A stretch of 64,000 nucleotides of DNA from Anaeromyxobacter sp. (GCA_049840735.1 JASGJN010000004.1:32001-96000); one strand, 5' to 3'; counted from the stretch's first letter, positions 9,378-31,757 are shown. The notes: generated from the letters alone by a model not told the origin. A program made the numbers and translations.

Positions 9378-10257
9378 ATGCGCATGCGGATCGGGTTCAT
9401 CGGCCTGGGGACCATCGGCGAGCCCATCGCCAACAACCTCCGCAAGGCGGGGCACGACCTCACGGTCTGGAACCGCACCGCCGCCAGGGCCAGCCACCTC
9501 ACCGCCAGGGGCGGCCGGCTCGCCGCCACGCCGCGCGAGTGCGCCTCCGGCCGGGATTCTGGTCTTCACCTGCGTCGCGGACGAGCGGGCCCTGGCCGCG
9601 GTGCTGGACGGCCCGGACGGCGCGCTGGCTGGCCTCGGGGAGGGCGACGTGCTGGTGGACCTCACCACCGCCGGCGTCGCCGCGGCCCGGGCGGCCAGCG
9701 AGCGCGCGGCCCGGGCCGGGGCCCGGTTCCTGGCCTGCCCGGTGCTGGGCTCCAAGGCCGCGGCGGAGCAGGGCCAGGTGGTGCTGGTGTGCGGCGGCCC
9801 CGGCCCGGCGCGGGAGCGGGCCCGCCCGGCGCTGCACGCGATCTCGTCCCGGCTCTTCGAGCTGGACGACCCCGCGCAGGCGGCGCTGATGAAGCTCTGC
9901 ATCAACGCCATCGGCGGCGCGATGATCACCGGCTTCGCCGAGGCGCTGGCGCTGGGCGGCGCCGGCGGGCTGGAGATCTGGCGGATGGTCGAGGTGCTGC
10001 AGGCCTCGTCGTTCCACTCGCCGCTCTTCCTCATGAAGGGCGAGCTGATCGAGAAGGGCGACTACGCGCCGCGCTTCCGGCTCAGCCTGGCGGAGAAGGA
10101 CCAGCGGCTGGCGCAGGAGGCGGCGGCCGGGCTGGGGTGCAGGCTCCCCATCAACGATGCGGTCCGGAGGCTGCTCCACGAGGCGGCGGAGGCGGGCGGC
10201 GACCGCGACTTCTGCGCGGTCGCGGAGCACCTGAGGAAGAAGAAGGGGCTGGGCTGA
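9378..10257 (+). CDS. NAD(P)-dependent oxidoreductase, 3-hydroxyisobutyrate dehydrogenase family (frameshift ~9555)
   Basis: IGFIGLGTIG, WNRT, PVLGS, MKLCIN, FRLSLAEKD. Confidence 0.85.
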
Positions 10258-10264
10258 TCCCTGG

Positions 10265-10301
10265 CCTTCGACTCCGGGCCGCTTCGCGGCCCTACGCTCA
10301 G
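10265..10301 (+). repeat. Left part of a REP-like repeat split by IS110 (right part 11732-11742)
   Basis: CCTTCGACTCCGGGCCGCTTCGCGGCCCTACGCTCAG here plus AGGCCGAACGG after the IS rebuilds the intact repeat seen at 24010 and 31583. Confidence 0.9.
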
Positions 10302-10388
10302 ATGGAATGAAGCGGCTGGCCTCCACCTCGGGGTGGTGGCACGAATGCCCCACAACGCGGTCAGAGCCGCAGAGAGTGGAGACCAGCC

Positions 10389-11423
10389 GTGGACCATATT
10401 GGCATCGACCTGCACAAGAAGGACAGCCAGCTTTGCATCCTGAACGCGGAGGGCGGGGTCCTGGAGGTGCGGATCCCCACCCGGGCCGACCGGTTCGCCG
10501 AGGTGCTCGCGAACAGGCCGCGGGCCAAGCTCCTGCTGGAGGCCTCCACGGAAAGCGAATGGGTGGCGCGGCACATCGAATCGCTCGGGCACGAAGTGAT
10601 CGTGGCCGACCCGAACTACGCGCCGATGTACGGGACGCGGACGAGGCGGGTAAAGACCGATCGGCGAGATGCCCGAGCGCTGGCCGAGGCTTGCCGTTCA
10701 GGGACCTACCGAGCGGCCCACCGGAGGTCGGAATCTCGGCGGACGGTCGCTGTCCGCCTGTCGGTGAGAGACACGCTGGTCCGCACCAGGTCGCGGTTCA
10801 TCACGGTGGACCCCGGACGTCCTTGCGGAGCCACGGGCTACGGGCCCCGAGCTGCGAAGCCGAGCACTTCGCGCGAGTGGTGTTGGAGATGGCCCTGCCG
10901 GACGAGGTCCGCGACGAGGTCGAGCCGTTGCTGCTGATGTTCGACACGCTGAACGCCCGGATCGCCAAGGCCGACGCTGACCTCGAGGCCATCGCCCGCG
11001 ACAGCGCAGTGGTACGGAGGCTCACGACGGCGCCAGGCGTGGGCGTCGTGACGGCCATTGCGTACGACGTCGTCATCGATGATCCCAAGCGCTTCCAGAG
11101 TGCCCAGCAGGTGTCCGCCTACTGCGGCCTGGTCCCTAGCGAGCTGAGCTCGGGCGAGAAACAGCGCAAGGGGCGGATCACCAAGACCGGCAACGCCAGG
11201 GTGCGCTGGCTTCTCGTCCAGGCCGCGCACTGCGTCTTGCGCAGCAAGAGCGCAGAGTCGCTGCCGCTGCGCGAATGGGCGGGGAAGATCCACCGGCGGA
11301 GGGCGACGCGCAGTCGCCGTCGTGGCGCTGGCGCGCAAACTCTCCGGAATCCTGTTCGCGATGATGAGGGACGGGAAGGACTTCGACGGCAGCCGCACCT
11401 GCAGGGGAAACGCGATGGCCTAG
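10389..11423 (+). CDS. IS110 DEDD recombinase/transposase (frameshifts ~10815 and ~11305)
   Basis: HIGIDLHK, LLEAS, KTDRRDA, PGVG, AYCGLVPSELSSG, ITKTGN, VALARKL. Confidence 0.92.
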
Positions 11424-11718
11424 ACGACCGAAATCGGACCCAGTCGGGCGGACGCCGGGCCGGAGATCCGGGAGTGAGGCGAAAGCGGGTTTCGAGACAG
11501 GGTGAGCGCGAGTTCGGCCTTGGCCGGTCACCAGGAACGGCCGTCGCTCAGATGGCGCCCCCTGCTCGAATCCCCCACTGCGCCGGCGGCACTGCCGCCC
11601 CTGTTGAGCGCGAATAGAAGGCTGATGGAACTCGCGTTCGCCTGACTCCCTGACCGATGGCCAACCAGCGCCGCCCAGGCTTCAGGACAAACGACATCAC
11701 CGGCCCTTGACCGGGGAC
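11424..11718 (+). ncRNA. Putative bridge/seekRNA region of the IS1111-type element (exact ends unknown)
   Basis: Contains GTTCGGCCTT (11512-11521), CGCTCAGATGG (11545-11555), ATAGAAGGC (11614-11622) and GATGGAA (11624-11630), all matching the IS junctions. Confidence 0.75.
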
Positions 11719-11787
11719 GCCGCTTCATAGAAGGCCGAACGGTGAGGGCCGGACCCGCAGAGCCGGGCCGCTGCGCGGCCCTACGCT

Positions 11788-11990
11788 CAATGCCGGTCAC
11801 TTAGGCAGCCGCCAGTTGCGGTCGTAGTGGCTCATCTTGATCTTCACCGCCCTCGGGTATCGACGTTTGGAGCGGCGAGGTGGCAAGACGAACTGGCTGA
11901 GATCTTCGGTGCTTCTCTCGATGAACGCCGAGAGCTTGCCTGGGCTCACCAGCGCAGCCAGGCGGAGGGTGTCGCGAGCCAGTCGGAGTT
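11788..11990 (-). mobile_element. IS4-family remnant (transposase C-terminus plus terminal IR)
   Basis: LPPRRSKRRYPRAVKIKMSHY C-terminus; end CAATGCCGGTCACTTA (11788-11803) resembles the IS4 terminal repeat; REP pieces on both sides. Confidence 0.7.
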
Positions 11991-15442: not shown

Positions 15443-15996
15443 CCCTTCGACTCCGCTCGCCCTGCGGGATCGCTACGCTCAGGGCGAACGGGGCCCCTCG
15501 GTGCCGGGCGGACCATGACTCAGGCCGGTCGGACCATGACTCAGGCCGAGCGGACCATGCGACTTGGCGCCGCTCTACAAGGTGCTGGTGAACGCGGAGT
15601 AGGGCCGCAGCGTCCCCTGCCCTTCGACTCCGCTCGCCCTGCGGGCTCGTTACGCTCAGGGCGAACGGGGCCCCTCGGAGCCGAGCGGACCATGACTCAG
15701 GCCGGTCGGACCATGACTCAGGCCGAGCGGACCATGACTCAGGCCGAGCGGACCATGACTCAGGCCGAGCGGACCATGACTCAGGCCGAGCGGACCATGA
15801 CTCAGGCCGAGCGGACCATGACCCAGGCCGGGCGGAAACAGCTCAGGCCGGGCGGACCCATGACTCAGGCCGAGCGGAAACAGCTCAGGCCGGTCGGACC
15901 CATGACCCAGGCCGGGCGGAAACAGCTCAGGCCGAGCGGGCTGTGAACCCGTTCGGCCTGAGCGTAGCCGCCGCGCAGCGGCGGCGGAGTCGAAGG
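15443..15996. repeat. REP cluster with 21-bp tandem array
   Basis: Forward REPs 15443-15491 and 15620-15668, reverse REP 15949-15996; ~14 units of GGACCATGACTCAGGCCGAGC and variants (15510-15559, 15687-15940). Confidence 0.92.
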
Positions 15997-24009: not shown

Positions 24010-24698
24010 CCTTCGACTCCGGGCCGCTGCGCGGCCCTGCGCTCAGGCCGAACGGGGTCCTTGGTCAGGCCGGACGGGGTCCTTGGTCAGGCCGGACGAC
24101 GTTCCTGGCCAGGCCGGACGGGGTCCTTGGTCAGACCGGACGACGTTCCTGGTCAGGCCGGACGGGGTCCTTGGTCAGACCGGACGACGTTCCTGGCCAG
24201 GCCGGACGGGGTCCTTGGTCAGGCCGGACGACGTTCCTGGCCAGGCCGGACGGGGTCCTTGGTCAGACCGGGCGACGTTCCTAGTCAGGCCGGACGGGGT
24301 CCTTGGTCAGGCCGGACGGGGTCCTTGGTCAGGCCGGACGGGGTCCTTGGTCAGGCCGGACGGGATCCTTGGTCAGGCCGGACGGGGTCCTTGGTCAGGC
24401 CGGACGGGGTCCTTGGTCAGGCCGGACGGGGGCCCTGGTCAGGCCGGACGGGGTCCTTGGTCAGGCCGGGGGTCCTTGGTCAGGCCGGGGGTCCTTGGTC
24501 AGGCCGGGGGTCCTTGGTCCAGGCCGCACGGGGGTCCTTGGTCAGGCCGGACGGGGTCCTTGGTCAGGCCGGACGGGGCCCTTGGTCAGGCCGGACGGGG
24601 TCCCTGGTTCAGGCCGGACGGGGTCCCTGGTTCAGGCCGGACGGGGTTCACTCTCCGTTCGGCCTGAGCGTAGCCGCCGAAGGCGGCGGAGTCGAAGG
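24010..24698. repeat. Inverted REP pair enclosing a ~600-bp 21-bp tandem array
   Basis: Forward REP 24010-24055, reverse REP 24655-24698; roughly 29 units of TCAGGCCGGACGGGGTCCTTGG-type repeat with ACGTTCCT variants. Confidence 0.92.
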
Positions 24699-31564: not shown

Positions 31565-31582
31565 CGGGCGTCTCGGGCCTGG

Positions 31583-31757
31583 CCTTCGACTCCGGGCCCG
31601 CGGCCGCGGGCCCTACGCTCAGGCCGAACGGACGCTCCTGCGCTCAGGGTAGACGGGCTCCCAGGCCCGGACGCGGCCCCTTCAAGCCCGTTCGTGGTGA
31701 GCGTAGCGCCCCGGGATGCCCCGGCGCCGCAGCGTGGCCGGGGCGCGGAGTCGAACC
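31583..31757. repeat. Inverted REP pair between convergent genes
   Basis: Intact forward REP 31583-31631; reverse variant with longer hairpin 31688-31757. Confidence 0.8.

Follow-up and report, generated by a model that had tools for sequence, protein, structure and literature searches.

An IS1111-type element in a REP-like repeat

The DNA analysed here is a 64,000-nucleotide stretch from Anaeromyxobacter sp. (GCA_049840735.1, JASGJN010000004.1:32001-96000; hereafter the window, with positions counted from its first letter), which lies within contig C4 of a 6.67-Mb genome with 73.5% G+C. It contains a copy of an insertion sequence (IS) lodged in a repetitive extragenic palindrome (REP)-like repeat. 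The copy carries a recombinase gene, here broken, and its non-coding sequence is unequally divided, with 87 nt upstream of that gene (10302-10388) and 308 nt downstream (11424-11731). The downstream non-coding region contains short segments that match the element's own junctions, arranged in and beside a predicted RNA structure (Table 1). From these features and from their variation among related elements, we consider it very likely that this is an IS1111-group copy moved by an RNA-guided recombinase at the REP-like repeat.

Table 1. Coordinates of the element, its target and the predicted guide RNA in the window.
Feature	Position	Strand	Remarks
Left part of interrupted REP-like repeat	10260..10301	+	CCTGGCCTTCGACTCCG, variable hairpin, CTACGCTC (10292-10299), core AG (10300-10301)
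IS1111-type insertion sequence	10302..11731	+	1430 bp; one of five genomic copies
Left subterminal inverted repeat ATGAAGCGGC	10307..10316	+	10 bp, kept in homologues; preceded by 5-nt terminal extension ATGGA
Recombinase (transposase) gene, pseudogene in this copy	10389..11423	+	Two extra bases (10810-10811) and one extra base (11304) relative to intact copies
Putative guide RNA gene (seekRNA / bridge RNA)	11496..11649	+	Bounds are those of the covariance-model match, not mapped RNA ends
Helix P1, 5' strand (GGTG.GCGC)	11501..11509	+	Pairs with 11555-11562
Guide T (GTTCGGCCTT)	11512..11521	+	Complementary to top strand: last IS base, core AG, right flank GCCGAAC
Hairpin P2 (TGGC...GCCG)	11521..11543	+	Between guides T and B
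Guide B (CGCTC+AG+AT)	11545..11553	+	Sense of left flank, core and first two IS bases; pairs with bottom strand
Linker, candidate weak fourth guide	11572..11579	+	5' of P3; complementary to top strand of left IS end
Helices P3 (GCGCC / G.GCGC) and P4 (GGCGGC-ACT-GCCGCC)	11580..11611	+	Covariation
Guide D (ATAGA+AG+GC)	11614..11622	+	Sense of right IS end, core and first right-flank bases
GATGGAA ('left end' match)	11624..11630	+	Unsupported as guide
Outward-facing -35-like box TTGACC	11707..11712	+	TTGAC-like box 20-26 nt from right end in 37/37 homologues
Right subterminal inverted repeat GCCGCTTCAT	11719..11728	+	10 bp; followed by 3-nt extension AGA
Second core AG (11732-11733) and right repeat part GCCGAACGG (11734-11742)	11732..11742	+	From sequence; same junction in all copies

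Five copies of the element, mutually 98.7-100% identical and with identical junctions, are present in the genome. The window copy begins with ATGGAATGAAGC at 10302 and ends with GCTTCATAGA at 11731. The left flank 10260-10301 is common to all copies, and in 5/5 the insertion point is the same, between CTACGCTCAG and AGGCCGAACGG of the repeat, as a sequence-only reading of this DNA had anticipated. That reading had also held that removal of 10302-11731 together with one AG restores the intact repeat, which is borne out by an uninterrupted 19-mer at 31613-31631, and its strings and coordinates for the element, the junctions and the matches in the non-coding region were all recovered from the sequence. 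A search for the same IS in 30 related genomes, a sample in which some assemblies are incomplete, gave marginal short matches only.

Three of the five copies encode an intact recombinase of 343 amino acids, so that a 'corrected' enzyme, which had been thought necessary for reprogramming experiments, is not required. Pfam domains PF01548 (E 3.1e-13, residues 4-146) and PF02371 (E 1.1e-23, residues 209-286) provide the DEDD/RuvC-like N-terminal domain and the C-terminal Transposase_20 domain that define the IS110 family, and NCBIfam NF033542, 'IS110 family RNA-guided transposase', is matched at 249.5 bits against a cut-off of 140 bits. The protein aligns with the IS4321 transposase at 28% identity over 323 amino acids (E 7e-30), with GLVPSELSSG here corresponding to GLVPRQYSTG there; matches to the solved ISCro4 and IS621 transposases are weaker and more distant (51 bits for IS621). 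The motifs IGIDL, LLLEAS, KTDRRDARAL and SSG align with the catalytic motifs of ISCro4 and IS621, and roles for the catalytic Asp/Glu/Asp/Asp and for the Ser of the SG motif have been described (PMC11208158). At the level of motifs these residues are conserved, the window copy itself being frameshifted. In a plasmid collection the best matches were at most 36% identical and generically named.

IS1111 recombinases are 330-350 amino acids long with a GL-P----S(t)G motif (PMC11187229), and the inverted repeats of IS1111 elements are subterminal, 7-17 bp long and flanked outwardly by short terminal extensions (PMC11208160). We place the element in this group on the basis of its 10-bp subterminal repeats, its 5- and 3-nt extensions, its 87-nt leader and 308-nt trailer, the 343-residue protein and the motif GLVPSELSSG; every group feature that was tested was found. 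By its sequence, the protein is therefore an IS110-family DEDD recombinase with IS1111-group features, in agreement with the family and group assigned in the sequence-only reading.

The target repeat

The sequence around the insertion point, the 14-mer CGCTCAGGCCGAAC (CGCTC-AG-GCCGAAC), occurs uninterrupted at 101 places in the genome, compared with 0.18 expected, and 844 sites lie within two mismatches of it. Among variants with one mismatch, GGC is found at 118 sites, CCC at 80 and GAC at 69, and 0/5 insertions lie in them. In the sample of 30 relatives the exact 14-mer occurs at most six times per genome. The 19-mer seen intact at 31613-31631 has three exact occurrences in the window and ten within three mismatches, where 0.05 would be expected. 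The proposal of an AG core programmed against a repeat family of this genome is supported.

The consensus derived from the 101 empty sites describes a unit of about 60 nt, comprising a conserved left arm (CCTGGCCTTCGACTCCG), a hairpin with co-varying arms, and then CTACGCTCAGGCCGAACGG. The unit is thus short, highly repeated and built on a central hairpin, as expected of a REP; the folding energy of one unit is ordinary (z -0.52). The genome has six matches to PF01797 (Y1 transposases, among them the REP-associated RAYT), and no repeat was found within 1.5 kb at the four of these six loci that were examined, for which reason we call the repeat REP-like. IS110-family elements of Pseudomonas putida that target REPs were reportedly described by Tobes and Pareja in 2006.

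Further examples of the repeat in the window are at 15473-15491, 15949-15967, 24655-24673 and 31576-31640. Elsewhere in the genome it often recurs in tandem, at intervals of about 82-111 nt (C10:71754-72428, C20:653872-655003, C26:251251-251595). To the right of the insertion, at 11757-11792, the window contains a truncated second unit, consisting of the hairpin and CTACGCTCA and then unrelated sequence, which retains the left half-target only.

Predicted target guides vary with the insertion site

Two segments of the downstream non-coding region, guides T and B, match opposite strands of the target and overlap at the insertion point, the top-strand match coming first. The same order, a top-strand match and then a bottom-strand match, is found in tested IS1111 seekRNAs (PMC11187229). 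Guide B forms part of an 11-mer, CGCTCAGATGG, at 11545-11555, which equals the left junction. The GG at 11554-11555 that follows guide B is conserved throughout the family whatever the left end, and its second G pairs in helix P1; the 11-mer, earlier taken as a guide in full, thus consists of a 9-base guide, which stands as such, and two bases of scaffold. The chance of such string matches was gauged with 2000 dinucleotide-preserving shuffles of the 283-nt non-coding region, in which a match as good arose in 1/2000 for the 11-mer and in 4/2000 for the 10-mer that is the reverse complement of the right junction.

Relatives of the element were collected by scanning one genome per species, which yielded 80 loci, mostly from Gemmatimonadota and Vicinamibacterales assemblies, with recombinase identities of 45-67%. 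On both sides, subterminal repeats could be recognized in 57 loci, of which 56 were among the 80 fetched and one, L003, came from the host genome. Two of these (L033 and L083), in which the pattern had matched the wrong place, and three with too short a flank (L007, L020 and L070) were left out, and the remaining 52 loci reduced to 37 non-redundant non-coding regions, among which 35 different target strings are represented. AG stands at the left junction in nearly all homologues. The left terminal extension is variable, with 12 classes when defined by the core and the first six IS bases, and variation at the right end falls mainly on one position (ACAGA, ATAGA, AGAGA or ATAAA).

Guides T and B and a third segment, guide D, occupy the same alignment columns in every homologue subgroup, each matching the junctions of its own element, with B about 30 nt 3' of T and D about 70 nt 3' of B. 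Guide T matches its own flank at a mean of 6.5 of 8 positions, compared with 3.4 in cross pairs, and guide B at 4.5 of 7, compared with 2.3; at four flank columns the identity of guide B to the left flank is 0.78-0.95. The summed own-pair score over the 37 homologues is 10.95, as against 6.30 +/- 0.29 with permuted junctions, and 0/5000 permutations reach it. An unbiased mutual-information scan returned exactly the B, D and T columns as its top pairs. Across homologues (37 elements, 35 targets), the predicted guides track the element's own targets, which is the covariation that the sequence-only reading had named as a check.

In 28 of the 37 homologues, the two bases that follow the core in guide B are the first two bases of the IS, as handshake positions would be. 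To this extent the earlier suggestion that the guides reach into post-recombination sequence is upheld; for guide D such an extension is weak.

Two relatives, judged by their sequences, are cases of natural half-site reprogramming. The closest relative, L006 (67% amino acid identity; 1.4-kb contig, label Brevundimonas), agrees with the Anaeromyxobacter element in its left half-target, left end and guide B and differs from it in guide T; the extension of its guide D departs from that of the Anaeromyxobacter element at the second base. Its right junction lies off the contig, and the comparison is confined to its left half-target and guides. L076 (45%) and L006 both have the left half-target CGCTCAG, and their right-half guides (GGCTCATCCTT and CGTCATCCTT) differ from that of the Anaeromyxobacter element. 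Since the closest relative thus has only half of the target in common, the clade appears to reprogram its guides in a modular manner in nature.

Predicted fold and expression of the guide RNA

A covariance model of the four-helix structure described below gave a single match in the window, at 11496-11649, with 106.7 bits and an E value of 1.2e-25. In 65/68 sources the model finds each element once, invariably 3' of the recombinase gene and on its strand. The model did not detect the non-coding region of IS4321, where its best score was 3.9 bits, and the RNA scaffold would therefore be specific to the clade of the Anaeromyxobacter element. No solo copy of the RNA region was found in the genome by BLAST.

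Helices P1, P2 and P3 come from RNAalifold on 30 sequences, and P4 was defined by hand from the alignment. P1 encloses an internal loop that is closed by P2, with guide T on the 5' side of the loop and guide B on its 3' side. P3 lies further 3' and encloses the P4 hairpin, and guide D follows directly after P3. Changes on both sides occur in six of the eight P1 pairs, for example from G-C to A-U in nine sequences. In P2, 98.4% of cells are paired and two of four pairs show compensatory changes; the corresponding counts of compensatory pairs are 5/6 in P4 and 2/5 in P3. Taken together, the four helices have 96.9% of cells paired and compensatory changes in 15 of 23 pairs, which 0/500 shuffles reach, and controls with slid pairing partners gave at most 54%. 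When applied to the model-fitted alignment, RNAalifold returned the same four helices and no further helix. The minimum-free-energy fold of the whole 308-nt non-coding region has a z score of -2.0; in this single-sequence prediction the guides are buried, and it was set aside.

Neither a sigma-70-like promoter nor an intrinsic terminator was found within the element in a search of 10200-11850. The outward-facing TTGACC box near the right end is probably half of a promoter that is created when the two ends are joined at the circle junction: the hexamer 17 bases after the TTGAC-like box spans the joined ends and, in the subgroup with the closest spacing, makes a good -10 box. A junction promoter has been described for this family (PMC11187229, PMC13604230).

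Candidate guides to the element ends

At 11614-11622 the non-coding region contains ATAGAAGGC, a 9-mer match to the right junction that was reached by 60/2000 shuffles. Four variants of the right end occur among 35 homologues, and in 34 of these homologues the five bases of guide D that correspond to the IS are those of the element's own right end; the variable base of D follows the variable base of the right end with a mutual information of 1.29 and an identity of 0.97. At extension positions +1 and +3 of guide D no covariation with the right flank was detected in the homologue set.

A helix that would close around D, between UCG of the linker and CUCG/CGAG downstream, was inspected by eye and rejected, being inconsistent between subgroups and unpredicted by RNAalifold.

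The sequence-only reading had regarded four junction or end matches as guides. Three of them covary as described above and are retained, and the fourth, GATGGAA, is not. A 7-mer match as good was reached by 225/2000 shuffles, and the stretch 3' of D does not covary with the left end (own 3.00 vs cross 3.33; in the other sense, 3.09 vs 3.25). The family consensus of this stretch already resembles GATGGAA.

The idea that a guide to the left end occupies one fixed register immediately 5' of P3 was likewise rejected. The longest exact runs between this stretch and the left end averaged 4.09, compared with 3.04, in registers that were inconsistent, and a signal came only from a gapped test at the level of classes. 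In that test the element's own class among the 12 left-end classes had a mean rank of 2.9, 6/5000 label permutations were as good, and the sense control was flat. A degenerate left-end guide 5' of P3 is possible; of the two prospective donor guides, the right-end one is strong and the left-end one a weak candidate.

Proposed mechanism and alternative explanations

The model that we favor builds on the observed anatomy and site specificity of the element, the covariation of guides with targets and ends, and the RNA helices. In this model, a DEDD/serine recombinase supplied by the three intact sister copies would be directed by a structured RNA of about 150 nt encoded just downstream of its gene. 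The loop between P1 and P2 would read the target, and the handshake would involve the two bases by which guide B extends past the core. Guide D (ATAGAAG plus G/C), after P3/P4, would read the right end and the core, and the degenerate stretch preceding P3 may do so for the left end. The guides would jointly specify CGCTC-AG-GCCGAAC of the host-specific repeat, with insertion at the AG core leaving AG on both sides, and expression would probably come from the promoter assembled at the circle junction. We infer that the RNA is made, that the enzyme binds it, that the circle promoter forms and that the chemistry follows. The observations of the sequence-only reading are partly confirmed and its interpretation is supported.

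Several points weigh against this model: (i) The two frameshifts in its recombinase gene leave the window copy unable to move alone. (ii) The boundaries of the homologues were set by their subterminal repeats, not by empty sites. (iii) The homologues are related to one another, so that the permutation counts overstate independence and express a strong pattern, not a probability. (iv) The alignment behind the pair counts was itself fitted to the covariance model. (v) Searching Rfam gave no family match, only two chance-level matches to small nucleolar RNAs (E 5.9 and 9.6). (vi) The two-nucleotide handshake is based on about three independent switches (AT, TT and AG). (vii) The extension of guide D into the right flank is weak, with +2 matches of 0.54 vs 0.33 and 14/5000 permutations as good. 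(viii) No supported helix encloses guide D. (ix) The left-end match is weak in the family and poor in the Anaeromyxobacter element, whose own class ranks 5/12.

The first of these points raises the question of whether the window copy can be mobilised in trans by its intact sisters as a non-autonomous copy or is a dead fossil. Its ends, subterminal repeats and every guide segment are identical to those of the intact copies, and within the non-coding region the copies differ at only three places: P2 and the stretch between P4 and P3 each have a single-base difference, and another copy has 2 inserted bases. In IS110/IS1111 systems that have been tested, recombinase and RNA can act when both are provided in trans (PMC11187229, PMC11208160). 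Nevertheless, the two frameshifts, together with a second broken copy (C26:118178, with 1-base and 7-base insertions in the recombinase gene) that indicates decay under way, make a dead fossil a serious possibility, somewhat short of an even chance.

It is unlikely that the RNA reads the target only, with both IS ends recognized by the protein through the subterminal repeats and the A-N-AGAAGG stretch acting as scaffold. The variable base of this stretch follows the element's own right-end base in 34 of 35 homologues and across four variants, and Durrant et al. report predicted donor guides in IS1111 elements (PMC11208160); on the other side stand the 82-nt seekRNA of ISEc11, which contains target matches only and sufficed for transposition (PMC11187229), the missing helix around guide D and the weakness of the left-end guide.

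Recognition of the repeat by protein-DNA contacts of the recombinase alone, the junction-like strings then being captured bits of target or recombination scars, would accommodate the 9-mer and 7-mer matches, which on their own arise not uncommonly in shuffled sequence (60/2000 and 225/2000), but it is highly improbable given that the strings at corresponding positions vary in step with the target (37 homologues, 35 targets, 0/5000 permutations), lie in a loop of conserved helices with compensatory changes, and include one reverse complement and one sense match, like tested seekRNAs (PMC11187229).

Relation to known RNA-guided elements

The mechanism proposed here has already been published (Siddiquee 2024; Durrant 2024), and other elements, among them IS621 and ISPpu9/10, are known to target REPs. 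The Anaeromyxobacter element reveals no new mechanism and is a clear but ordinary further example of the seekRNA/bridge-RNA kind. It is a clean natural example, one genome containing the guides, the repeat family they match, its empty sites and intact copies of the recombinase gene.

The closest parallels are the tested IS1111 seekRNA elements ISEc11, ISPa11, ISKpn4 and ISPst6 (Siddiquee et al. 2024, PMC11187229). Like them, the element combines a DEDD recombinase of about 340 amino acids and a GL-P----S/TG motif with subterminal inverted repeats and a long downstream non-coding region, it has a top-strand match 5' of a bottom-strand match with an overlap at the insertion point, and its relatives show natural reprogramming. 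Among IS1111 members its protein is distant, with 28% identity to IS4321, the sole named member compared. It also differs from the tested elements in that a right-end guide is backed by covariation as well.

Like the bridge RNA of IS621 (Durrant et al. 2024, PMC11208160; Hiraizumi et al. 2024, PMC11208158), the predicted RNA has separate guide regions for the target and the element ends, its guides cover the core dinucleotide, and a 2-base handshake extension would read the partner DNA. The natural target of IS621 is likewise a REP, and its promoter is assembled at the circle junction (PMC11208160, PMC11208158), as proposed above for the Anaeromyxobacter element. IS621 differs in belonging to the IS110 group, with an RNA upstream of the gene and very short inverted repeats. 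It also differs in the order of its guides, a bottom-strand guide of 8-9 nt and then a top-strand guide of 4-7 nt plus a 2-base handshake, and in its CT core (PMC11208160, PMC11208158), whereas the order is reversed in the Anaeromyxobacter element and the core on the gene strand is AG.

When the Anaeromyxobacter element is read on the strand opposite the gene, it presents a CT core, a long 5' guide (about 9-10 nt) against the 'bottom' strand, and a short 3' guide made up of 5 nt and the core with a 2-base handshake after it; the segments for the element ends are arranged likewise around the second stem-loop. We raise only tentatively, and think it on balance doubtful, that the guide layout of this clade is the IS621 bridge RNA layout read on the strand opposite the gene, the IS1111 cassette being inverted relative to the polarity of the site. 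If so, strand exchange would start on the strand antisense to the gene, and the left end would be read loosely by the RNA and mainly via the long subterminal repeats.

ISPpu9 and ISPpu10 of Pseudomonas putida (Pares-Guillen et al. 2025, PMC12288879) resemble the element in having several genomic copies, each in a REP, and in encoding a small RNA 3' of the transposase. The downstream RNA of ISPpu9, Ssr9, is dispensable for transposition and also occurs as solo copies (PMC12288879), whereas the RNA region of the Anaeromyxobacter element gave no solo copy by BLAST and has segments that track the target.

Targets of related elements

The approximately 65 related RNAs with many targets, from Gemmatimonadota, Vicinamibacterales and others, form a ready comparative set, which can be used to ask how IS1111-type RNAs read the element's own ends, a matter left open by the 2024 papers. 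One copy in this set, L037:3092-3256, has a 6-nt insertion, GCTTCT, directly before the right-end guide, which may represent a slipped or damaged guide region. The right flanks of L011 and L015 (Gemmatimonadota) end in GGTTCAAATCC, which resembles a transfer RNA (tRNA) T-arm, so that these elements may target a tRNA gene. A single Vicinamibacterales chromosome holds at least 15 copies of one related element (L043-L058 and L073), nearly all in one coding-looking context, with GGCGTCGGGGAG before the element and AGGATCTTCAG after it; in that genome the element may target a conserved motif within a gene instead of a repeat between genes.

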